From: Candidatus Uhrbacteria bacterium
Lineage (GTDB): Bacteria; Patescibacteriota; Patescibacteriia; UBA9934; GWF2-40-263
Direction: 5' to 3'
NCBI GenBank assembly: GCA_018700535.1
Contig: JABITQ010000072.1
Span: 1-54,077, forward strand
Length of the DNA: 54,077 bases
A program made the translations under genes and the position numbers. The notes under the pieces are model-generated. The model made no database searches. It was given only the letters and a program-made list of their open reading frames with translations, and was not told where the DNA came from. Below are positions 2,192-47,522 of this stretch, piece by piece. Each line of letters begins with the position of its first letter. The first letter of the stretch is position 1.

Positions 2192-3301
2192 ATGGGAACA
2201 CTTTTATTGTTTATCATCGTTTTGTCTCTACTGGTTTTTGTCCACGAACTTGGGCATTTTTTGATGGCAAAGAAGATGGGGATGCGTGTAGATGAGTTTG
2301 GGTTTGGTTTCCCGCCACGCTTGTTTGCTATTCGTAAAAACGGAACAGATTACTCGATCAACTGGATCCCGCTTGGTGGGTTTGTAAAAATCAAAGGAGA
2401 GTCTGGTGATCACAAGGGGGATAAAGATAGTTTTGCTTCAAAGAAATCATGGCAGCGTTTTGTTGTGCTGATTGCAGGTGTGGTGATGAACTTTTTTCTT
2501 GCGGCTGTGTTGTTGTCTGTTGGATTCATGATCGGCTTACCTGGAATGATCAGCGAAGACTTGCCGGCGAGTGCGCGTATTTCAGATCAGGCGATTCGTG
2601 TGATGCAGGTTGTCGAAGGTTCTCCGGCTGCGCTTGCGGGTGTGGTTGCTGGTGATGAGATTTTGTCTGTTGATGGTCAGGTGTTTACAGAGGACGCACC
2701 GTTACGTGAGTTGATCCAAACGTCAGCGGCAGATGGGCTTTCAATTGTTGTTGAAAACGAAGAAGGGGTTGCGCGTACGTACGAGCTAACCTCTGAGTAT
2801 CTTGAAGAGGCAGAAGCAACAGGAATCGGTTTGTGGTTTGTTGCAACGGGAACAGTCTCATATCCGTTCTTCCATGCGATCCTTCAAGGGGTTGCTGCAA
2901 CAGGTACAGTGACTTGGGAGGTGCTAAGTGCGTTTGGGGGATTGGTTCGCGATTTAGTTGTGAGTCAGGAGGTGAGTGTTGATCTTTCAGGGCCTGTGGG
3001 GATTGCAGTGATGACTGGTGAGGTGGCTGCGCTCGGGTTTATTTACTTGTTGCAGTTTACAGCGATCCTTTCTATCAACCTTGGAATCATCAATGCACTT
3101 CCGTTCCCAGCGCTCGATGGTGGGCGCATCCTTTTCTTAATTATTGAGAAGTTGCGTGGTAAGCCCGTGAATGGGAAGACTGAGGCGGTTGTTCACAATG
3201 TGGGCTTTATGTTCCTTATGGGGCTTGTTGTGCTTGTTACGTATAAAGATTTTGTTACATTCGGAGATGAAATACTTGGAGCTATTAAAGGGATTTTATG
3301 A
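2192..3301 (+). CDS. rseP: site-2 protease, M50 zinc metalloprotease (RseP family) with PDZ domain
   Basis: HELGHF zinc motif near the N-terminus, a central PDZ-like region, the NALPFPALDGG motif, and multiple TM helices. Confidence 0.9.
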   Translation: MGTLLLFIIVLSLLVFVHELGHFLMAKKMGMRVDEFGFGFPPRLFAIRKNGTDYSINWIPLGGFVKIKGESGDHKGDKDSFASKKSWQRFVVLIAGVVMNFFLAAVLLSVGFMIGLPGMISEDLPASARISDQAIRVMQVVEGSPAALAGVVAGDEILSVDGQVFTEDAPLRELIQTSAADGLSIVVENEEGVARTYELTSEYLEEAEATGIGLWFVATGTVSYPFFHAILQGVAATGTVTWEVLSAFGGLVRDLVVSQEVSVDLSGPVGIAVMTGEVAALGFIYLLQFTAILSINLGIINALPFPALDGGRILFLIIEKLRGKPVNGKTEAVVHNVGFMFLMGLVVLVTYKDFVTFGDEILGAIKGIL

Positions 3302-4344
3302 AAAATGATTTAGAAGAACTGAAAAACGACTTTCTAAAATTGGTGAAAGAGGTGGGTGATCGTGCTCAGCTTGAGGAGTTGAAGAACGAATTTTTGGGTC
3401 GTAAAGGAAAGATGAAAGGCCTCATGAAAGATATGGCTTCTCTTGCGAACGAGGAGCGTAAAGTGATTGGTGCGTTTGCAAACGAGATTAAAGAGTCTAT
3501 CGAGTCTGTGTTTGGTGAGCATGAGGAGCGTTTTGCAGCCGAAGAAGAATCCACACGCGCTGAGCGAGAGTGGGTTGATATTTCAGAGCCAGGGCGTTTT
3601 GAGGGTGCTGGGCATCTACATCCTGTGAGTCAGGCGATTGGTGAGATTACAGATATTTTTGCTCGTGTTGGTTTTACAGCCGTGCGTGCACCAGAGATTG
3701 ATTGGGATTATTACGCATTTGAGTCACTTAACCTTCCAAAGGATCATCCTGCACGTGATGATTGGGAGACGTTTTTTGTTGATGCTCCTGAAGGGAAAAA
3801 GGGAAAGATTGTGCTAACTCCACACACATCGAACTCACAGGTGCGCACAATGGAGACACAGGAGCCACCAATTAGAATGATCAACATTGGGCGTTGTTAT
3901 CGTCGGCAGATCGATATCACACACGTGCCGATGTTTCATCAGTTTGAAGGGCTGATGATCGACAAGGGAGTTTCCGTAACACACCTAAAGGGTGTGCTCG
4001 ATTATTTTGCAAAAACATATTTTGGTCCAGACCGTCGTACGCGTCTGCGGCCGCATCACTTCCGTTTTACCGAGCCGAGCTTTGAGGTTGATATTAGTTG
4101 TGGTGCTTGTGGGGGAGAGGAGCATGAGAATTGCAGAGTGTGTAAAGCTGGGTGGCTTGAGCTTGGAGGTGCCGGTATGGTGCATCCAAATGTGATCAAG
4201 GCCGGAGGACTCGATCCAGACGTCTATTCAGGATTCGCTTTTGGGTGGGGGGTCGAGCGCACGCTTATGATGCGATCCGGAATTAAGATCGGAGACATCC
4301 GGACGTTGTATAAAAACGATTTGAGGTTTGTAAAACAGTTCTAG
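3298..4344 (+). CDS. pheS: phenylalanyl-tRNA synthetase alpha subunit
   Basis: N-terminal coiled coil plus class II core motifs (HPARD, FRFTEPSFEVD, GWGVERTLM). ATGA overlap with rseP. Confidence 0.95.
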   Translation: MKNDLEELKNDFLKLVKEVGDRAQLEELKNEFLGRKGKMKGLMKDMASLANEERKVIGAFANEIKESIESVFGEHEERFAAEEESTRAEREWVDISEPGRFEGAGHLHPVSQAIGEITDIFARVGFTAVRAPEIDWDYYAFESLNLPKDHPARDDWETFFVDAPEGKKGKIVLTPHTSNSQVRTMETQEPPIRMINIGRCYRRQIDITHVPMFHQFEGLMIDKGVSVTHLKGVLDYFAKTYFGPDRRTRLRPHHFRFTEPSFEVDISCGACGGEEHENCRVCKAGWLELGGAGMVHPNVIKAGGLDPDVYSGFAFGWGVERTLMMRSGIKIGDIRTLYKNDLRFVKQF

Positions 4345-4345
4345 T

Positions 4346-6724
4346 ATGAATATTCTTGCATCGTACAATTGGATTAAGGAGTATCTTGATACAGATTTAT
4401 CTGCGGAGGTTTTTGCTGCAAAGACTACAGCAATTGGAAACTCGGTTGAGATGATCGAGAATGTTGCTGATCGATTTGAGAACATGGTTGTTGGGGATGT
4501 TGTAAAGCTTGAGGTTCATCCAAATGCAGACAAATTAAAGATCGCTCTTACAGACATTGGTGGAAAGAAAGTTAGAGTTGTTTGTGGGGGTGAGAACTTA
4601 GAGGAAGGCCAGAAGGTTGTTGTTGGGCTACCGGGGGCCAAGGTGCGCTGGCATGGTGAGGGAGATTTGATCGAGCTGAAAGAATCAGAGATCCGTGGAG
4701 AAAAAAGCCATGGAATGATTTGTGCGGCTAGTGAAATTGGTTTTGAAAAATTACCGCAGGAAGAAACAGATATCTGGGATATTTCTGCACTAACAGATGC
4801 AAAAGCGGGGACACCAATCGCAAAGGCGCTTGGACTCGATGATATCCTTTTTGATATTGAAGCAACGACGAATCGTCCAGACTGCAAATCGATTGTTGGT
4901 CAGGCGCGAGAGGGTGTTGCTGTTACCGGAGCAAAGTTTGAGGCCGAGCCACCACGTCCAGCTTTTGGAAAAGGGAATGGTGGGTTTACGGTTGATGTAA
5001 AAGATAAAGCGCTTTGTCCGCGTTATACCGCTGTGGTGATTGACGGCGTGACCGTTGGACCATCTCCGTGGTGGTTGCAGAAACGATTGCTACTTTCTGG
5101 CCATCGTCCAATCAACAACATTGTTGATGTGACTAATTACGTATTGCATGAGTTTGGACAGCCACTTCATACATTTGATGCAGATAAGCTTGCAGGCGAG
5201 AAGATTGTTGTTCGCAAAGCAAAGAAAGGGGAGAAGATGGTTGCGCTTGATGGCGAGGAGTACGAGCTAACTCCAGATATGCTGGTGGTTGCGGATTCTA
5301 AAAAGCCTGTTGCGGTTGCGGGTGTTATGGGTGGACTGCCGACCGGGACCACTGAAGAGACCACGAAGGTGGTGATTGAGTGCGCAGCATTCGACTCTGT
5401 TTCTGTGCGACGAACATCGCGTGCATTGAATCTGTACTCCGACTCACAATTGTTATTTGAAAAAGGATTGTCTACAGAAGCTCTTGATGCAGCAATGGCT
5501 CGCGCAATCGAGCTTATCATCGAGGTTGCTGGCGGTGTTGTTGTTTCAGATCTTATTGATGAGCGTGCGGGTAAGTACAAGACACTAAGCTTTCCGTTTG
5601 ATCCTGAGGTTGTTAATCAGCTTATTGGAATTGAAATTGAGACCAAGGAACAAACAACGATTCTTGAAAGTCTTGGTTTTGAAATGAAGGGCAAGGAAGT
5701 TGTTGTGCCTTACTGGCGTGACAATGACATCGAAGCGTCTGTTGATCTTACAGAGGAGATTGCGCGCGTGTATGGATACGAGAATCTTCCGTCAATTTTA
5801 CCTGAGGGTGCGCTTGCGAATATGAGCGAGAACGTATCGCTTGTGTGGCAAAGACGTGTGAAGGATCTGCTTGCTGGTGCTGGACTGGTTGAGGTTTACA
5901 GTTATGCGTTTATTTCAGTGCAGCAACTTGAGCGTTATTCTTTACCTACCAAAGATGCGGTGAAGCTTCGGAATCCACTTAGCAAAGACCACGAGTACAT
6001 GCGTCCATCGCTTGTTCCGAGCATGCTTACAGTGATTGAAGAGAACCAAGCGCGGGATGGTGCTGGAGACTTGTTTGAGTTCGCACCGGTTTATCATGCA
6101 AAAAAAGGAGACATCCCTGACCAGCCTTACGGTTTGTTGCTTGCAAGTTATGGGCAGGATGGAGCTGCTGGGTTTGTGCGTGCAAAGGGAATGTTGGAGC
6201 GATTGTTTGATCAGGTTGGTATTAACAATTGGGATCTTGCTCGTGATGCCGATGAAACACTTTGGCATGCTGGGCGATCAGCATCTGTGATTGTTGATGG
6301 TAAGTCAGTGGGAGTTATTGGTCAGGTTCGCAATTCAGTTGCGAAAGCATTCGGACTAGATGTAAGTGTTGTGTTGGTTGATTTAGATATCGAGTCACTC
6401 ATTCCGCAATTCACACAGAACAAATCGTACACTGAGATCCCACAGTTCCAAGAGGTAAAACGAGACCTCGCATTTGTCGTGCCTGAACGAACTGAGTTTG
6501 CTGCGGTTCGTGAAGCAGCACTTGCTGTTAGTGAGCTTGAGACCACACTCGACTTGTTCGACGTCTATCGCGGAAAGGGAGTTGATGACGACAAAAAGTC
6601 TCTCGCAATCCACATGACGTTTCGATCTGACGAACGAACACTTGGTGCAGCAGAAGTCGACGAAGAACTTTCAAAGATTCGCGGCGTGCTCGTAAAGAAG
6701 TTTGGTGCTATAATGAGATCATAA
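4346..6724 (+). CDS. pheT: phenylalanyl-tRNA synthetase beta subunit
   Basis: 792 aa with tRNA-binding, B3/4, B5 and FDX-ACB domains (ending KSLAIHMTFRS). Lies immediately after pheS. Confidence 0.95.
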   Translation: MNILASYNWIKEYLDTDLSAEVFAAKTTAIGNSVEMIENVADRFENMVVGDVVKLEVHPNADKLKIALTDIGGKKVRVVCGGENLEEGQKVVVGLPGAKVRWHGEGDLIELKESEIRGEKSHGMICAASEIGFEKLPQEETDIWDISALTDAKAGTPIAKALGLDDILFDIEATTNRPDCKSIVGQAREGVAVTGAKFEAEPPRPAFGKGNGGFTVDVKDKALCPRYTAVVIDGVTVGPSPWWLQKRLLLSGHRPINNIVDVTNYVLHEFGQPLHTFDADKLAGEKIVVRKAKKGEKMVALDGEEYELTPDMLVVADSKKPVAVAGVMGGLPTGTTEETTKVVIECAAFDSVSVRRTSRALNLYSDSQLLFEKGLSTEALDAAMARAIELIIEVAGGVVVSDLIDERAGKYKTLSFPFDPEVVNQLIGIEIETKEQTTILESLGFEMKGKEVVVPYWRDNDIEASVDLTEEIARVYGYENLPSILPEGALANMSENVSLVWQRRVKDLLAGAGLVEVYSYAFISVQQLERYSLPTKDAVKLRNPLSKDHEYMRPSLVPSMLTVIEENQARDGAGDLFEFAPVYHAKKGDIPDQPYGLLLASYGQDGAAGFVRAKGMLERLFDQVGINNWDLARDADETLWHAGRSASVIVDGKSVGVIGQVRNSVAKAFGLDVSVVLVDLDIESLIPQFTQNKSYTEIPQFQEVKRDLAFVVPERTEFAAVREAALAVSELETTLDLFDVYRGKGVDDDKKSLAIHMTFRSDERTLGAAEVDEELSKIRGVLVKKFGAIMRS

Positions 6725-18376: not shown

Positions 18377-19326
18377 AACAAAAAATAATTGCCATCGTTG
18401 GTCCAACGGCTGCTGGGAAAACCGGACTTGGTATTGCGCTTGCTAAAAAATATAATGGCGAGGTGATCTCGGTTGATTCTCGTCAGGTGTATAAGGGGAT
18501 GGATGTTGGGACGGCGAAGGCAGAGGGGAAGTGGGTTGAGGTTGAAATTGAAAAGGGGGGAAGTATTGACCAGTTGTTTGGTGCGCGCAAAACGTTTTTG
18601 GTTGATGATGTGCCGCATTGGGGGATTGATCTTGTTAGTCCTGATAAAGATTATTCTGCTGCGCAGTTTAAGGAGTATGCAGAGCAAAAGATAAAAGAGA
18701 TTGCTGAACGTGGTCGTGTGCCGATTTTGGTTGGAGGGACGGGGATGTGGCTTAAGGCGCTTGTCGACAATCTTGACCTTGCTTCAACACCATCAGACAA
18801 GGGGATGCGCGCAGAGCTTGAGGCTCGACGTTTGGGCGATTTGTTTCATGAGTACAAAGAGCTTGATCCTGTTGGAGCAGAGACGATTGATAAAAACAAT
18901 AAGCGTCGTGTGATGCGTGCGCTCGAGGTGACAAAACTTACAGGGAAACCATTTTCAGAACTCCGGACAGCGGGGGAGTCTAAGTACGATGTGTTGCAAC
19001 TTGGGTTGAGTTTGGATCGTGAAGCGTTGTACGAGCGGATTAATGATCGTGTTGATGTGATGATTGGTCTTGGGCTTGTAGATGAGGTGCGTGCGTTGAA
19101 AGAAAAATATGGATGCGGCATCGATGCTATGACGGGGATAGGGTACCGACAGGTGTGTGAATTTTTAGACGGGAAGGAATCATTGCGGTTTGCGATTATA
19201 GAAACGAAGAAAGCGAGCAGGCATTACGCTAAGCGTCAGATGACATGGTTTCGTCGTGATGAGCGTGTCCTGTGGATAACTTCTGGTGAGGAAGTGAACG
19301 TAGCTGTGGATAACTTTTTGAAGTAG
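18373..19326 (+). CDS. miaA: tRNA dimethylallyltransferase
   Basis: P-loop GPTAAGKT, SVDSRQVYKGMDVGTAK, and the RQMTWFRR motif. ATGA overlap with miaB. Confidence 0.9.
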   Translation: MKQKIIAIVGPTAAGKTGLGIALAKKYNGEVISVDSRQVYKGMDVGTAKAEGKWVEVEIEKGGSIDQLFGARKTFLVDDVPHWGIDLVSPDKDYSAAQFKEYAEQKIKEIAERGRVPILVGGTGMWLKALVDNLDLASTPSDKGMRAELEARRLGDLFHEYKELDPVGAETIDKNNKRRVMRALEVTKLTGKPFSELRTAGESKYDVLQLGLSLDREALYERINDRVDVMIGLGLVDEVRALKEKYGCGIDAMTGIGYRQVCEFLDGKESLRFAIIETKKASRHYAKRQMTWFRRDERVLWITSGEEVNVAVDNFLK

Positions 19327-42672: not shown

Positions 42673-43503
42673 TTACGCAACCAGTCGATCTTTGAGGTAA
42701 GTAGCCAGTCGATCATCAAGGGCTGCGACAACATTCTTGATACACAAGTCGTGCTCGCGTATGTAGTCGCCAGCTACCTTGATTCTCTCTTTGAGATGGC
42801 TAGGACGTTGTTTTGTGATCGCGAACAGACGATCGTACAATGGGATGTTGTTGTTTTGCAGGCGATTGATTTCTTTGGAAAGATCGAATGATGAACCTGC
42901 TTGTGTAGATATCTCAATGAGCATTGCGACCGCAGCAAGTTCCTCGCTGCATTCTCGGCGCGCTCTGCTCAGATTGTCTTGAATGCTGTCGTGCCATGAG
43001 TCTTTGTGGATGAATCCGAGCTCTTGGCGTTTTCGGTAGGTTTCCCACCGCTCGATGCAGAGGTTGACCACTGTGGTGCTTGCACATATATTCGAGCATA
43101 GTCTGGCAAGCTCGTTGTTGAACACTCCTTCCTCAATCGGTAGTCGCATTCTGACTTCGTACTTGTGGAGATTCCATGCCGCGCGAATCGCTGGGATTGC
43201 TAGGATGAGAAGAACTAGTCCGCTACAAAGTGCAACATTCCCCAAGAGCGTGTAGGAGGCGGTGATGATCGAGGTCGCCAGACTTTCTGGTCCAACGCTC
43301 TTCATATATTCGATGACCATTTGGCTGTTGGTCATGAATGCGGCATAGAGAGCACACACCACCGTTATGGCCAGTGCGATGACAGCATGTCGTACCGATG
43401 TGCGCCATTTCTCTCTCAAGCCCTTCAGCAGGATTCCATCCCGAGCTTTTGAGTGTTTGCTCGCAAGGATTTTCACTTGGCTTGGTGTGTTCAATTGTTC
43501 CAT
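42673..43503 (-). CDS. orphan membrane protein (276 aa, two TM helices plus a helical cytoplasmic domain)
   Basis: GGAG lies 6 nt upstream of the ATG at 43503, with its own TTGACA-16-TAAACT promoter. TM segments are AVIALAITVVCALYAAF and LCSGLVLLILAIPAI. Confidence 0.65.
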   Translation of the reverse strand: MEQLNTPSQVKILASKHSKARDGILLKGLREKWRTSVRHAVIALAITVVCALYAAFMTNSQMVIEYMKSVGPESLATSIITASYTLLGNVALCSGLVLLILAIPAIRAAWNLHKYEVRMRLPIEEGVFNNELARLCSNICASTTVVNLCIERWETYRKRQELGFIHKDSWHDSIQDNLSRARRECSEELAAVAMLIEISTQAGSSFDLSKEINRLQNNNIPLYDRLFAITKQRPSHLKERIKVAGDYIREHDLCIKNVVAALDDRLATYLKDRLVA

Positions 43504-43538: not shown

Positions 43539-43566
43539 AGTTTAGCTAATTACTCGGTTTTGTCAA
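43539..43566 (-). promoter_or_regulatory. sigma70-like promoter (TTGACA-16-TAAACT)
   Basis: The -35 at 43561-43566 overlaps the prmC stop codon. The -10 is at 43539-43544. Confidence 0.5.
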
Positions 43567-44471
43567 CACTTCATGTAAGCAATGCGTTTGTTTCCCTGAA
43601 GATCTTTGAGAATTTCCACGGATATTTCAGGAAAGAACGATTCGATCATGCGTTTGATCTTGTGTTCCTGCTCTGGATCGATTTCCATGAGTACGTGGAT
43701 TGCTCGGGGGAGTACGCGTCTGTGTGCCTTGAGTTGTTTGAACAGCTCTTTGTACGCATCCAGACCGTCTGTGCCGGCTGTGAGTGCCAGGGTGGGTTCA
43801 AAGGTTACTTCGGGTTGCAGGTCCTCCATCTGTGCGATTGTGAGGTAGGGGAGGTTTGCGGCGATGATGAGCGTTTCGAACGGGTAGATGTTTGAAACGT
43901 GGTTTGCCCCTGTGCGATGGAGGGTGGTGAAGAGGCGGATGATTGGTTCTAGAATCGATCCGTGCTGGAAATCGATTGAAGACTCAACGTTGTGAACCTG
44001 TGCATTTTGTTTTGCAATGTTGAGAGCACCTTGGTCGATGTCGATGGCGATCACATGCTGTTTTGTTTCTGCAGCAAGTGTGATGGCAATGGCACCAGAC
44101 CCTGTTCCAATATCAACGAGGAGTGTGCGATCAGGGTCGGACTCCTTTGTGAGCTCAATCGCTTTTTCTACCAACGACTCAGTGGCAGGGCGGGGGATGA
44201 GCACAGAAGGATCGGTGGTAAATGTTCTTGAGAAAAAATCTTTGCGCCCCAAGATGTAGGCGATGGGCTCTCGAGACACTCTTCGGTCTACAAGAAGACT
44301 AAATTGTTCTTCTTGGTGTGTACGGATTTTGTCGCTGAAATGCGAAAATAACCACGCCTTTTTTACATCAAGGGTAGTTGATAGGAGAATTTCGGCATCG
44401 AGCATGGGTGAGTCGATCCCGGCTTTCTTTAGCTTGTTGTTCGCCCATTGCAAGGCTTCCATGATAGTCAT
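43563..44471 (-). CDS. prmC: release-factor glutamine methyltransferase (HemK/PrmC)
   Basis: PrmC N-terminal helical domain, SAM motif VDIGTGSGAIA, and substrate motif NLPY in place of NPPY. Confidence 0.85.
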   Translation of the reverse strand: MTIMEALQWANNKLKKAGIDSPMLDAEILLSTTLDVKKAWLFSHFSDKIRTHQEEQFSLLVDRRVSREPIAYILGRKDFFSRTFTTDPSVLIPRPATESLVEKAIELTKESDPDRTLLVDIGTGSGAIAITLAAETKQHVIAIDIDQGALNIAKQNAQVHNVESSIDFQHGSILEPIIRLFTTLHRTGANHVSNIYPFETLIIAANLPYLTIAQMEDLQPEVTFEPTLALTAGTDGLDAYKELFKQLKAHRRVLPRAIHVLMEIDPEQEHKIKRMIESFFPEISVEILKDLQGNKRIAYMKC

Positions 44472-44482
44472 ACATGCACCCT

Positions 44483-44527
44483 AAACAAAAAGAAGACCCG
44501 GAGCAACCTTTCGGTTAACTCCGGGCC
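44483..44527 (-). terminator. intrinsic terminator at the 3' end of the ORF-free unit
   Basis: Minus strand CCCGGAG-UU-AACC-GAAA-GGUU-G-CUCCGGG followed by UCUUCUUUUUGUUU. It ends 12 nt before the prmC ATG. Confidence 0.65.
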
Positions 44528-45660
44528 AGCAGTCACTTTATAATCACCAGCGTAGTTGATGATCATTTGGGTGACGTTTCCAACGGGGAGGTGGTACGGC
44601 CACGAGGACTTCATCGGTCTGTTGCCAGACATCGTCCATCGCAGCTCGACACCAAACCTCTTACCGTTCCTCTGACTGAACTAGGCTTGTAGGCTTCGTT
44701 CGCTGGTTTTCAATGTTCCCAGGGCGGTCGGGCAACGATGAATTGCCATCTGGCCTGTGGGGCTACGTTTCCTTTCGGTTGCGTTCCATCTATAACGAGC
44801 AGTCTTTTTGAGGTTCACAGGGTGCCTCAGTTGCATTGCCAAGGTTTCATTTCTGCTACCTTGTTCGGGTCGTGAGAGGTGGTCCCTCGATCCGTGTGCA
44901 TTGCGTCTGTTTCACGCTTGGCATCAGGTTTGCACTTGATGTTCAAGGTCTGTGAAAGAAGCGTACAGCATTCTTTCGTTTGCTGTGCTGTGAGCTTGTC
45001 TATTGGATAGATGTCGCTCGGGTTAACCCTTCTTCAAGTTGTCTCTCGACGCATTTCAGGGTGGGGTTGGTTGTTCGGTTGCTTTTGACCATTTGACGTA
45101 CTTTGAAACGTTAGCTTCATTGGTGCCAAGGCTCCAAATCCACCCTTTTCGGGAATCGTTTCTTTCAAATGCGATCGTGTCTTTTTGGTTGTGCAAGCAC
45201 AGCTTTCAATGTGGCGATCTGGTGAGCTCTATTCAACGCTACCGATGCAGCGTGTCTTTTTACTCGCTCAGGCTTTGGTTGTGTTCCCCGTTGGGACCAC
45301 GTCTTTGAGCTTGAGTTGATTGAGTTTTGTCGCCAGTGTGTCGGCAATTTATTCAATCGTGTCCGTTTTACCGAACGAGCGTTAGTTTCGACTCGATGCG
45401 ATCAGCGTGTTTGCACCGAAGTGCGCACGTGCCATTCATCTCGTCTCGTAAACGTTTCGCCCATTCCATTCGCTGTTGCGTTCACCTTGCGGATTCTGCT
45501 TTTGCGTTTGGTCGACGTTCGTCTTTTGCATTATCGATTCAACTTTCGTCCGAACCGTCCTGCTAAGATGTTGGTCTTTCAGGTTTAGCTTGCGCTGCAC
45601 CCTGGGTCTCATGTTGCGTTGCCGAAGCTCTGCGTCACTCGAACGTGATGACTATGCTAT
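44483..45660 (-). ncRNA. candidate large (~1.17 kb) structured non-coding RNA, family not recognised
   Basis: It is bounded by its own promoter and terminator and has no protein-like ORF. The transcript would be A-rich and U-poor. Multiple GNRA/GAAA-capped hairpins and a pseudoknot-like arrangement can be read by eye. Confidence 0.45.
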
Positions 45661-45681
45661 CAGGAAATAATATTGTGTCAA
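45654..45681 (-). promoter_or_regulatory. sigma70-like promoter (TTGACA-16-TAGCAT; alternative TTGATA-18-TATTAT)
   Basis: The -35 is at 45676-45681 and the -10 at 45654-45659. The alternative uses a -35 at 45691-45696 and a -10 at 45667-45672. Confidence 0.5.
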
Positions 45682-45720
45682 CAGCTGGTTTATCAACAAA
45701 ACTATTAGTTATCCACAGAA

Positions 45721-45752
45721 ACAAAAAACCATTCGCGTGTTTGCGGATGGTT
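45721..45752 (-). terminator. intrinsic terminator of the nucleotidyltransferase gene
   Basis: AACCATCCGC..GCGAATGGTT hairpin followed by TTTTTTGTTTC on the minus strand. Confidence 0.7.
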
Positions 45753-46411
45753 TATGCAGTGAGTGCACGTGCTGCCTCTAGCTGATTGTGCGTACCAACT
45801 TGGTGCCAGTGTGTTGCTTGGACCATTTGGATTTGTACTTTGCGACTAATGCGCTCGAGTGTTTGTGGCAAACCAAGTTCGGTATGGTCGCCTACATATA
45901 TCTGCACAGGATCTTGTTCGAACAATGTTGTTCCAAGGACATAGGCACCGCAGACCGCTGTGGAGCCTGGTCCAAGTTGGATGAAACAATCATCGAGATT
46001 GCTAAGTGCAGCAAACGTGAGTGATCGATCGACTTCGTGAACGAGCATAGACCATTCGTGTTTGATGAGTTGCTCAAGGTCGTCTTGTGTGTACAGATCG
46101 TCTGCATTGATGACCAAAAACTTATCGTGCAGATGTTCCTGTGCCAACCAGAGCGCTCCAGCCGTTCCATTCAGTGGTTCTTGTACCAAGTACCGAATTG
46201 GGATCCCATTCCACGCATCACCAAGCTGTTCGATGATTTGTTCACGCAAGTGGTTTACGATAACAATCAACTCATCGATCGCGCTTGGGAGTGCATCGAG
46301 AACATGTTCGATAAGTGGCTTTTCCCCAACAGCAATGAGGGGTTTGGGTGTTGAGATTGTAAGTGGGTGCAGGCGTGTGCCTTTGCCTGCAGCAAGGATG
46401 ACAGCTTGCAT
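45752..46411 (-). CDS. sugar-phosphate nucleotidyltransferase (NTP_transferase family)
   Basis: N-terminal signature AVILAAGKGTRLHPLTISTPKPL and a GlmU/RmlA-like fold length (219 aa). Confidence 0.8.
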   Translation of the reverse strand: MQAVILAAGKGTRLHPLTISTPKPLIAVGEKPLIEHVLDALPSAIDELIVIVNHLREQIIEQLGDAWNGIPIRYLVQEPLNGTAGALWLAQEHLHDKFLVINADDLYTQDDLEQLIKHEWSMLVHEVDRSLTFAALSNLDDCFIQLGPGSTAVCGAYVLGTTLFEQDPVQIYVGDHTELGLPQTLERISRKVQIQMVQATHWHQVGTHNQLEAARALTA

Positions 46412-46414
46412 AGC

Positions 46415-47488
46415 TTAGTTGATCTCTGAGAGTTTCTCTTCCATCTCAGCTCCTTTAAGGTCGTCAATGAGTGGTTGGAGTTCGCCGGTAAGAACGCCAG
46501 CGATGTTGTGGTAGCTCTTTTTAATGCGATGGTCTGTAATACGATCTTGTGGAAAGTTGTAGGTGCGGATTTTTTCAGATCTGCTTCCAGTTCCAATTTG
46601 CCCACGTCGCGCATCTTCTCTTTCTTTGCGAGCTTTTTCGCGTTCCATATCGTAAATACGTGCACGCATAATAGAAAGTGCTCGCTCCTTGTTTTGCTTT
46701 TGTGAGCGCTCCTCCTGACAGTATACGATCATTCCAGTTGGGATGTGGATGATGCGGATGGCTGAGTAGGTTGTGTTTACGCTCTGTCCACCAGCACCGG
46801 TTGAGGTGGTGGCTTCGATTGTTAAATCTTTCATGTCGAGTTGAACGTCGACCTCTTCTGCTTCTGGTAGTACGGCAACCGTGATGGTTGAAGTATGAAT
46901 GCGTCCTTGCTTTTCTGTCTCAGGAACACGTTGCACACGATGTACTCCAGATTCAAATTTCAAATTACTAAAAACGTTTGATCCTTTGATACCAAACGAA
47001 ACTTCTTTAAACCCACCAACATCGTTGCGACTTGCACCGATCAGTTCCATCTTCCATCCTTGTCCTTCTGCAAACAACTGGTACATGCGCATTAGCTCAG
47101 CTGCAAACAAGGATGCTTCGTCGCCACCAGCTCCTGCGCGAATTTCAACAATGATGTTTTTCTTATCCATTGGGTCTGGGGGGATAAGAGCGAACGTGAG
47201 TTCTTGCTCAAGTGCAGGGATTGTTTTTTCAAGTTCGTCGATTTCTTCTTGCGCAAGCTCTTTCATCTCATCGTCCTCTGCCTCAACGAGTGTGGAGCGT
47301 GCTCCTTCGAGGTCTGTTGAAGCTTTTTCGTAGCGTTCGCCAATTTCAACAATCGCTCGTTCAGCCGCATAAGCTTCGTTTAGTTCACGAAGTTTTTTGG
47401 TATCAGAAAGCAACTCGGGATCCATGAGAGAGGACTCGAGTTCTTTTAAGCGAGTTTTGTGAGCGTTGAATTGGGTGAGTAGATTCAT
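46415..47488 (-). CDS. prfA: peptide chain release factor 1
   Basis: GGQ motif (GAGGQSVNTT) and RF1-type tripeptide region RVPETE. The ATG at 47488 (MNLLTQF) is preferred over the track start. Confidence 0.93.
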   Translation of the reverse strand: MNLLTQFNAHKTRLKELESSLMDPELLSDTKKLRELNEAYAAERAIVEIGERYEKASTDLEGARSTLVEAEDDEMKELAQEEIDELEKTIPALEQELTFALIPPDPMDKKNIIVEIRAGAGGDEASLFAAELMRMYQLFAEGQGWKMELIGASRNDVGGFKEVSFGIKGSNVFSNLKFESGVHRVQRVPETEKQGRIHTSTITVAVLPEAEEVDVQLDMKDLTIEATTSTGAGGQSVNTTYSAIRIIHIPTGMIVYCQEERSQKQNKERALSIMRARIYDMEREKARKEREDARRGQIGTGSRSEKIRTYNFPQDRITDHRIKKSYHNIAGVLTGELQPLIDDLKGAEMEEKLSEIN

Positions 47489-47494
47489 ATGGAT

Positions 47495-47522
47495 ACAAAA
47501 AGCGTCCAATCGAAAGGACGCT
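47495..47522 (-). terminator. intrinsic terminator-like hairpin after rpmE, abutting the prfA start
   Basis: AGCGTCC..GGACGCT hairpin plus TTTTT. The U-run ends 8 nt before the prfA ATG. Confidence 0.6.

Follow-up and report, generated by a model that had tools for sequence, protein, structure and literature searches.

What occupies the long gap that separates a nucleotidyltransferase (NTase) gene from prmC in a contig of Candidatus Uhrbacteria? The DNA analysed here is a stretch of 54,077 nt (contig JABITQ010000072.1), which as a whole will be called the window; the element under study lies on its minus strand, between 44483 and about 45651. A preliminary description of this locus had read the gap as a discrete transcription unit encoding a large structured non-coding RNA (ncRNA) that could not be assigned to any known family. 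The comparison with related loci reported below supports this reading: the element belongs to a family of 24 loci that is non-coding and for which sense-strand structure is supported. In our view this gap probably harbours a separate gene whose product is a large and highly structured ncRNA, from a previously undescribed Uhrbacteria family.

A family of elements upstream of prmC

Relatives were collected by prmC-anchored searches of Uhrbacteria genomes and metagenome contigs, in which prmC is 46–70% identical to that of the window. At 24 Uhrbacteria loci, a gap of 0.5–2.4 kb that is poor in open reading frames (ORFs) and in U (0.17–0.25 U) lies between the NTase gene or prfA and prmC; at other loci NTase (or prfA) and prmC abut or overlap, with no gap. 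The gaps share patchy nucleotide similarity that links them as a network, and the family could be recognised only through gap-versus-gap comparison and reading of the gap ends. Whole elements measure 525–1,670 nt, with a variable middle. Each gap contains exactly one promoter of the form CCCTTGAC-N17-19-TAnnnT (TTGAC), followed by a GUUACCGYC start, and alignment of 21 promoter and 5′ modules gave the 5′ consensus GUCGUUACCGUCnGnUGA. Along the 3′ domain the succession of motifs is constant, starting with a GAGC...GCUC hairpin, which is followed by AUGUC, GGAACG, GGAGGU-n-GGUG, the variable hairpin sub-domain, CACC-ACCUCC and lastly CGUUGGAG; conservation within the family is highest for ACCACCUCC and CGUUGGAG. 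Every member ends in a hairpin followed by a U-run. Inspection by eye shows TGnTAnnnT, an extended −10 element (such as TGCTATACT), at most loci; it stands a few nt past the terminator and 6–10 nt before the prmC ATG, which implies a separate, often leaderless, putative prmC transcript.

The element is present in 12 of the 21 GTDB species representatives, and contigs whose prmC is identical to that of the window have the same element unchanged. At the loci that lack the element, no other copy turned up within ∼6 kb of prmC, and two pattern scans of viral contigs returned only chance, coding-like matches and no copy. In some pairs of genomes the element is better conserved than the third-codon positions of prmC, in keeping with selection: L002 and L004 differ at 26% of element sites and at 51% of these prmC positions, and for L003 and L004, too, the element is the more conserved of the two. 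In the data reached, this previously undescribed family appears to be restricted to Uhrbacteria.

The element is non-coding

Codon periodicity was looked for in four pairs of relatives, 59–75% identical. In all four pairs the substitutions in the element were even over the three phases (phases 0/1/2: 59/55/61 in L017/L018 and 60/61/53 in L002/L004), and insertions and deletions (indels) were mostly of 1–2 nt. The prmC genes of the same genome pairs showed an excess of third-position changes (16/8/80 and 45/20/151, respectively) and in-frame indels only. At the protein level, tblastx similarity between gaps was equal in all six frames. ORFs that occupy the slot at particular loci (the 412-aa ORF of L021 and those of L055, L056, L008, L002 and L050) left no remnants in the other elements, and neither an intact nor a decayed homologous protein gene was found in the relatives. 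Because codon periodicity is missing and indels are mostly of 1–2 nt, sequence comparison indicates that the element is non-coding.

Evidence for structure on the sense strand

Hairpins capped by a GNRA or UNCG tetraloop, with a stem of at least 4 bp, were counted in 21 elements: there were 86 on the sense strand and 19 on the antisense strand, compared with 10.7±3.6 (maximum 24) in 200 dinucleotide shuffles and 0–1 in four coding controls. To measure consensus structure, RNAalifold energies were converted into z-scores by column shuffling. The 3′ domain of nine members, including the window, had a z of −7.3 on the sense strand and +0.2 on the antisense strand. Three successive segments covering the full-length alignment of L002, L003 and L004 gave sense z-scores of −7.3, −3.7 and −8.6 (antisense mean −3.0; prmC mean +0.2), and 27 pairs in these three sequences show compensatory changes. 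Sense scores were also lower than antisense means for L007/L011 (−2.8 versus −1.6) and L015/L019 (−2.2 versus −0.8); for L053/L056 and for L008/9/27/34, signal was confined to some alignment segments, where the alignment holds.

The framework of the 3′ domain is a predicted long-range helix, in which AACG...GGAGGU.GGUG pairs with CACC.ACCUCC...CGUU, enclosing the variable hairpin sub-domain and leaving GGAG/GGAA unpaired. RNAalifold predicts this helix unaided, with compensatory changes, and the minimum free energy (MFE) fold of the window copy contains it. In the MAFFT alignment, 83% of cells pair (42–56% with slid partners) and the covariation score is 0.38 (0.08–0.20 with slid partners). 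In an alignment of 12 members fitted by a covariance model (CM), 87% pair, versus 40–51%, and double changes occur in 8 of 15 pairs, versus 2–5. Duplexes of cognate strands reach −25.3 kcal/mol, versus −18.6 for non-cognate strands, and the cognate partner ranks first in 7 of 14 cases. Outside this core the pairing continues into AACG(N)/(N)CGUU, for which L056 has the variant ACAG/CUGU and L004 the variant AACGU/ACGUU. In the model, a 16S-like CACCUCC would be sequestered by the Shine-Dalgarno-like GGAGGU, and a second GGAG would be single-stranded. At the other end of the RNA, co-folding of the family-wide 5′ domain gave an uninformative consensus, the sequences being too divergent for MAFFT; an inspection by eye showed no consistent partner for a 5′–3′ closing helix or for pairing of the 5′ end with prmC. 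Taken together, tetraloop enrichment, consensus-folding z-scores and compensatory changes support a family that is structured on the sense strand only.

The window carries a divergent member of the family

Searches with the window element by BLASTN and nhmmer against 56 related loci had matched identical contigs only, but a profile of the family finds the window. When the window was left out, an nhmmer profile for the 3′ domain of eight other members had 44487–44694 (minus strand) as its sole match in the 54 kb, with E = 2.5e-6, and a CM built from five other members gave 44570–44683 (minus strand) the top rank among all positions of the two strands. The window element has the 3′-domain motifs in family order at 44483–44701 and lies in the family slot, between prfA/NTase and prmC and on the same strand. 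It also carries, in the right order, the DnaA box described below, the promoter, the 3′ domain and the terminator. Its 5′ start is diverged: it reads GUCAUCACGUUC where the conserved start of the family is GUCGUUACCGUC, and ∼11 of 20 consensus positions agree. On the basis of the 3′-domain hidden Markov model (HMM) and CM, synteny, strand, promoter, DnaA-box offset and motif order, we consider membership of the window established, the copy being a divergent one; its own conservation is demonstrable for the promoter architecture and the 3′ ∼210 nt only.

A DnaA box phased with the promoter

The 9-mer TTATCCACA is the canonical DnaA box (consensus CTGTGGATAAC). Within 60 nt upstream of the −35 element, a box with at most one mismatch is present at all 24 loci, and is perfect at 22 of them; the background in the same loci is 0.025 per 92 nt. 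The offsets of the box from the −35 element are −17, −26, −36 to −38, −47 and −57/−58, that is, a phasing of ∼10.5 bp, and both orientations occur. The window has an offset of −36, as do L015, L017, L018 and L019. By our own estimate, such phasing would arise by chance with a probability of roughly 1e-3, counting about six independent classes. Since the offsets differ by whole helical turns, they indicate that a protein binds on a constant face of the DNA with respect to RNA polymerase; judging from the 9-mer alone, this protein is most plausibly DnaA. Two publications describe DnaA as acting as a transcription factor in many bacteria (PMC11317965, PMC13438810).

Elsewhere in the window, the 12-mer CTGTGGATAACT, which includes a perfect DnaA box, occurs twice on the plus strand (19270–19281 and 19304–19315) at a distance of 34 nt, in the last 60 nt of the coding sequence of miaA (IPP transferase) and shortly ahead of a convergent terminator. 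A further copy of this 12-mer, at 45706–45717, stands in front of the RNA promoter. Three perfect boxes were found in the 54 kb, compared with ∼0.4 expected by chance.

Organisation of the element in the window

The features of the window element are listed in Table 1. On the minus strand the gene order is prfA (46415–47509), NTase (45752–46411, assigned to the NTP_transferase family by Pfam PF00483), the element and prmC (43563–44471). The statement of the preliminary description that the unit splits prfA and prmC is thus corrected: its neighbours are the NTase gene and prmC, prfA being one gene further upstream. Both ends that it had assigned to the unit were found where it placed them, namely the NTase terminator followed by a TTGACA/TAGCAT promoter on one side and the GAAA-capped terminator on the other. 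The promoter has 10 of 12 consensus matches and an extended −10 TG. The terminator has a predicted energy of −24.8 kcal/mol (z = −5.0; none of 200 shuffles was as good) and is followed by UCUUCUUUUUGUUU; it was overlooked by a simple terminator scanner because its stem is interrupted. It ends 12 nt ahead of the prmC ATG (44469–44471).

Table 1. Features of the element and its immediate flanks in the window, in the direction of the predicted transcript.
Feature	Position	Strand	Description
Intrinsic terminator of the upstream NTase gene	45719..45752	−	Hairpin AACCAUCCGC...GCGAAUGGUU and U-run; upstream boundary of the unit
Perfect DnaA-box 9-mer	45709..45717	−	TGTGGATAA in the sense strand, TTATCCACA in the plus strand; starts 36 nt upstream of the −35 element
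Second DnaA-box-like 9-mer	45690..45698	−	TGTTGATAA, one mismatch; window copy only
Sigma-70-type promoter	45654..45681	−	TTGACA 45676–45681, 16 nt, TG-n-TAGCAT 45654–45659
Predicted RNA	44483..45651	−	∼1165 nt; start predicted from the promoter and the aligned 5′ ends of the family; extends through the terminator U-run
5′ end segment	45633..45652	−	GUCAUCACGUUCGAGUGACG; counterpart of the family consensus GUCGUUACCGUCnGnUGA
Predicted hairpin near the 5′ end	45580..45604	−	CAGG-GUGC-AGC-GCAA-GCU-AAA-CCUG; from sequence reading and alignments
3′-domain hairpin P-a	44678..44701	−	GAAC-[16-nt loop]-GUUC; in the single-sequence MFE fold
Long-range helix, 5′ strand	44645..44668	−	AACGG-uaa-GAGGU-uu-GGUG-u-CGAG; RNAalifold and window MFE fold
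Variable sub-domain	44606..44637	−	GGAC...GUCUG-GCAA-CAGAC...GUCC; enclosed by the long-range helix; holds the GCAA hairpin 44617–44630
Long-range helix, 3′ strand	44578..44606	−	CUCG-uggc-CGUACC-ACCUCC-CCGUU; followed by unpaired GGAA
Hairpin between 3′ helix and terminator	44543..44563	−	AUCAUCA-ACUACGC-UGGUGAU; position variable in relatives
Intrinsic terminator of the element	44483..44527	−	GAAA-capped 14-bp interrupted hairpin and U-run
Candidate prmC −10 element	44471..44483	−	TAGGGT 44478–44483, six nt before the prmC ATG; tentative, by analogy

Two of the hairpins in Table 1 have counterparts in relatives. The 15-mer AGCGCAAGCUAAACC within the hairpin near the 5′ end is identical in L002, and the equivalent hairpin of L002–L004 is predicted with compensatory changes. 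P-a corresponds by inspection to GAGC/GCUC or UGAC/GUCA, copies that MAFFT places out of register. The candidate −10 element TAGGGT is shared with L011; by analogy with the other loci it would, tentatively, give a leaderless prmC mRNA.

The interior of the unit had been described as ORF-poor, and indeed holds five short frames of at least 60 aa only: four on the plus strand (64–90 aa), which are of low complexity, and one of 63 aa on the minus strand. The strand asymmetry noted earlier is real, the sense strand having A 0.32 and U 0.19; however, with a plus-strand AT skew of −0.36 to −0.40 across the unit and −0.03 to −0.33 in the flanking genes, it is only moderately stronger than in adjacent coding sequence. 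Likewise, the local structures and the 11-mer repeat (45176–45186 and 45251–45261) named in the preliminary description are all present, but neither the repeat nor the proposed pseudoknot arrangement (z = −1.7) is clearly above chance.

A 54-codon ORF (44468–44632, minus strand) crosses the 3′ helix and the terminator and has an ATGA overlap with the prmC start; it is not conserved and is probably fortuitous. Directly downstream of prmC lies a 276-aa ORF (42673–43503, minus strand) with no Pfam match, which is missing at that position in most relatives, L002 giving a weak 30% match only. It was considered as a gene for a partner protein of the RNA and rejected, as it does not co-occur with the element. 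Other neighbours in the window are a DUF3048 gene, an L25 gene and gyrB, the last ∼6.5 kb from the element.

The slot upstream of prmC at other loci

Judging from what it holds elsewhere, the slot ahead of prmC resembles a hot spot for insertions. In L013, the prfA–prmC gap (5794–6000, 207 nt) resembles a miniature inverted-repeat transposable element (MITE), with perfect 18-nt terminal inverted repeats AGATTCTTGTAAAACTCG / CGAGTTTTACAAGAATCT, and a related sequence is found upstream of the RNA promoter in L055 (∼3700–3860). The slot of L021 (4697–5926; also L042 and L043) contains a protein gene of 409–412 aa with an N-terminal signal-like segment, and that of L055 an ORF (2587–3700) with a lipoprotein-like start (MYRIIALLAAAAMVFTTGC). 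These protein genes are unrelated to the RNA elements and occur instead of, or besides, the RNA. For the window element itself a mobile element was rejected, no terminal inverted repeats or duplications being found at its ends.

Both flanks of the RNA show further peculiarities. In L027, L008, L034 and L015 the upstream gene has a terminator hairpin that overlaps with the RNA promoter at the −35 element, as in GGCC-TTGAC-GGCC-TTTTTT, whose hairpin loop is the TTGAC −35 element. At some loci the interval from the RNA terminator to prmC contains short tandem or iterated motifs: TTGTCAC in L010 (5850–6000), CTACTAT in L030 (∼2400–2476) and ACGAAT in L027 (∼3900–4000). Many metagenome contigs end inside or at the edge of the element (L044–L048, L052, L054, L215, L216, L022, L028, L033 and L040), and contigs of the species to which the window belongs stop at 1060 and 493 nt upstream of prmC, which suggests population-level heterogeneity or low coverage.

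Search for known RNA families

The absence of a known family, as the preliminary description had it, held in every search. Rfam 15 gave no match in the whole window at gathering thresholds, and two short chance matches only in the 1.6-kb region at E ≤10; nothing meaningful was found at 15 related loci (13 at gathering thresholds, two at E ≤1). RNase P, transfer-messenger RNA (tmRNA), signal recognition particle RNA, 6S RNA, ribosomal RNA and group I/II introns were without Rfam match, and ARAGORN found no tRNA or tmRNA in the 54-kb window. In the literature on ncRNAs of Uhrbacteria, Patescibacteria and the Candidate Phyla Radiation (CPR), and on DnaA-controlled ncRNAs, we found no description of the element.

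Discussion

The data presented here are best explained by an independent RNA gene. Transcription would start at the strong sigma-70-type promoter near 45651 of the minus strand, run for ∼1.16 kb and stop at the terminator hairpin at 44483–44527; prmC would most probably be transcribed from a promoter of its own, possibly leaderless, right after this terminator. From the conservation and phasing of the box, DnaA bound on one face of the promoter may control synthesis of the RNA. The RNA most likely works in trans, in the form of a folded scaffold or ribonucleoprotein like other large ornate bacterial RNAs, and it is probably not a leader of prmC. The middle, whose variability gives the family its range of 525–1,670 nt, would be a peripheral expansion around conserved 5′ and 3′ cores.

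Several observations weigh against this interpretation, some of them concerning the window copy itself. Its divergence is such that the best prmC match (70% identical) has an element that is not alignable to that of the window in the middle; the central ∼900 nt (∼44705–45580) have no alignable homologue at all, so that structure there is a single-sequence prediction without comparative support. The leave-window-out HMM of the 5′ module finds nothing in the window, and the leave-window-out CM hit scores just 11.4 bits, with E ∼0.18. Folding of the window copy is better than that of shuffled sequences, but only modestly: in 200-nt segments the mean z is ∼−1.8, compared with −0.4 to −1.3 in the flanking genes, an unremarkable value, and there are 3 tetraloop hairpins where 0.8 are expected. 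Others concern the family. The element is missing at the locus in 9 of the 21 species representatives and in the close relative L214 (prmC 67% identical), and is dispensable at the prmC locus. In L017/L018, it diverges by 25%, about as much as the prmC third-codon positions (27%), and gives no consensus-structure signal (z −0.6; prmC mean −0.6); several two-sequence groups have weak z-scores. As to the 3′ helix, a covariation score as high as the observed one arises in 15 of 500 shuffles, and pairs with changes on both sides are no more numerous than in shuffles. Because the core of the helix is largely conserved in sequence, the covariation evidence for it is moderate, not overwhelming.

Could the element instead be part of the prmC transcript? 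It always lies immediately upstream of prmC and on the same strand, and in the window a promoter scanner found no minus-strand promoter in the 12 nt between the terminator and the prmC ATG. The element might then be a long structured 5′ leader or attenuator, co-transcribed with prmC, in which read-through of the terminator would be set by a signal, for example the status of release factor 1 (RF1), PrmC or S-adenosylmethionine; the CCUCC box has two possible partners, GGAGG upstream of it and GGAG downstream, which would provide two conformations. We regard this as unlikely, however, as known leaders are far shorter than 0.5–1.7 kb, Rfam has no matching riboswitch or leader family, and the extended long-range helix (at least 20 bp) is far more stable than the alternative hairpin. 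Moreover, many relatives have prmC without a gap, the NTase stop overlapping the prmC start, and a TGnTAnnnT element stands between terminator and prmC in most relatives, its place being taken by TAGGGT in the window as in L011. Alternatively, the gap may be mostly non-functional spacer in an insertion hot spot, with selection on the promoter and DnaA box, a short 3′ motif and the terminator only. This would agree with the fast sequence turnover, the middle of the window element that lacks a homologue, the presence/absence pattern, the unrelated inserts in the slot elsewhere (the secreted-protein gene of L021, the lipoprotein-like ORF of L055, the MITE-like sequence of L013), the frequent contig breaks inside the element, and the L017/L018 pair, which diverges at about the synonymous rate and lacks a structure signal. 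Spacer would not account for the eight-fold, strand-specific excess of tetraloop hairpins over whole elements, variable parts included, nor for the U-poor composition kept in all copies, the full-length z-scores of −3.7 to −8.6 and 27 compensatory pairs of L002/3/4, or the conservation of the L002/L004 and L003/L004 elements beyond prmC third-codon positions; we judge it improbable.

A function at the level of DNA, with incidental transcription, would make of the locus a DnaA-binding element: a part of oriC, or a titrating or reactivating locus resembling datA or DARS. Conservation of the box at all 24 loci and the proximity of gyrB fit with this, but there is one box only (two in the window, one of them imperfect), many relatives lack the locus altogether, and the phasing of the box to the promoter points to transcriptional control. 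An origin of replication was rejected on the number of boxes, and as the window locus has no AT-rich unwinding segment (48–53% GC) and the cumulative GC skew rises monotonically over the 54 kb, without inversion. A DnaA locus of this kind therefore seems most improbable, and we give as little credit to a decayed pseudogene or a small-protein coding region. The A:U skew in the coding-strand direction does resemble that of the neighbouring genes, some relatives have stop-free stretches of 100–217 codons, and the 54-codon ORF overlaps the prmC start; yet codon periodicity is lacking, indels are of 1–2 nt, similarity between copies is equal in six frames, gap ORFs match only their own close copies and the 54-codon ORF is not conserved.

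How does the proposed RNA gene compare with known systems? OLE (RF01071), GOLLD (RF01998) and ROOL (RF03087) are large ornate ncRNAs of bacteria, whose functions are at best partly known. OLE is a conserved RNA of ∼610 nt associated with oapA/oapB/oapC in extremophilic or anaerobic Firmicutes; GOLLD is often adjacent to tRNAs or located in prophages. The Uhrbacteria element shares with them a size of 0.5–1 kb or more, a stand-alone transcription unit, a narrow phylogenetic range, many GNRA/UUCG-capped hairpins on A-rich linkers, conserved cores with variable peripheral insertions, and a function that is not obvious from genomic context. It differs from them in that neither the window nor the 15 loci match the RF01071, RF01998 and RF03087 models, in its host (CPR/Patescibacteria rather than Firmicutes, lake or rumen metagenomes), in its fixed slot in the rpmE-prfA-(NTase)-prmC cluster rather than in a prophage or tRNA neighbourhood, in the absence of a nearby partner gene like the oapA of OLE, and in a much faster sequence turnover. 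Because model matches are lacking and hosts and context are different, the element stands as a family of its own, a new one, among the loosely defined large ornate RNAs of bacteria. Unusual for this class are the restriction to a CPR lineage, the rapid turnover with presence/absence, and the DnaA-box-phased promoter, which to our knowledge has not been reported for OLE, GOLLD or ROOL.

Promoters regulated by DnaA include those of dnaA, mioC and nrdAB in Escherichia coli and of sda and ywlC in Bacillus subtilis. As in these, a canonical TTATCCACA box lies close to a sigma-70-type promoter; in contrast to these, the product is a large ncRNA rather than a protein, and the box, whose regulatory role is a prediction, stands upstream of the −35 element at helically phased distances and in either orientation. 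With long structured leaders and attenuators (T-box RNAs, riboswitches and ribosomal-protein leaders) the element has in common its position directly upstream of a translation-related gene on the same strand, the intrinsic terminator at its end and possible alternative pairings of CCUCC. It is, however, three to ten times longer, has no Rfam cis-regulatory match, is separated from prmC by a promoter-like element at most loci, and is missing from many relatives that keep prmC.

Large structured bacterial ncRNAs of unknown function are few, and their study has led to the OLE ribonucleoproteins and to the RNA cages of ROOL and GOLLD. We found no report in the literature of a large structured RNA from the CPR. 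CPR genomes are tiny, so that ∼1 kb of non-coding DNA is costly to their bearers. The family is tractable, with clear boundaries, a conserved 3′ architecture and a promoter coupled to a phased DnaA-box motif, and this coupling leads to a regulatory hypothesis in which synthesis of the RNA would be tied to replication status. A more far-reaching version, to which we accord little probability, is that a lineage-specific ornate RNA gated by DnaA, in the release-factor operon of ultra-small CPR bacteria, links replication status to translation. One speculative route would be that the CACCUCC box and the exposed GGAG box engage ribosomes or mRNAs; another possible one is the assembly of an RNA-only or ribonucleoprotein scaffold, as with ROOL and GOLLD. 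If this version were true, the element would constitute the first CPR-specific class of large structured RNAs and the first with a DnaA-controlled promoter. The presence or absence of the element among close relatives constitutes a natural experiment, which could help to find partner genes and the function of the RNA.

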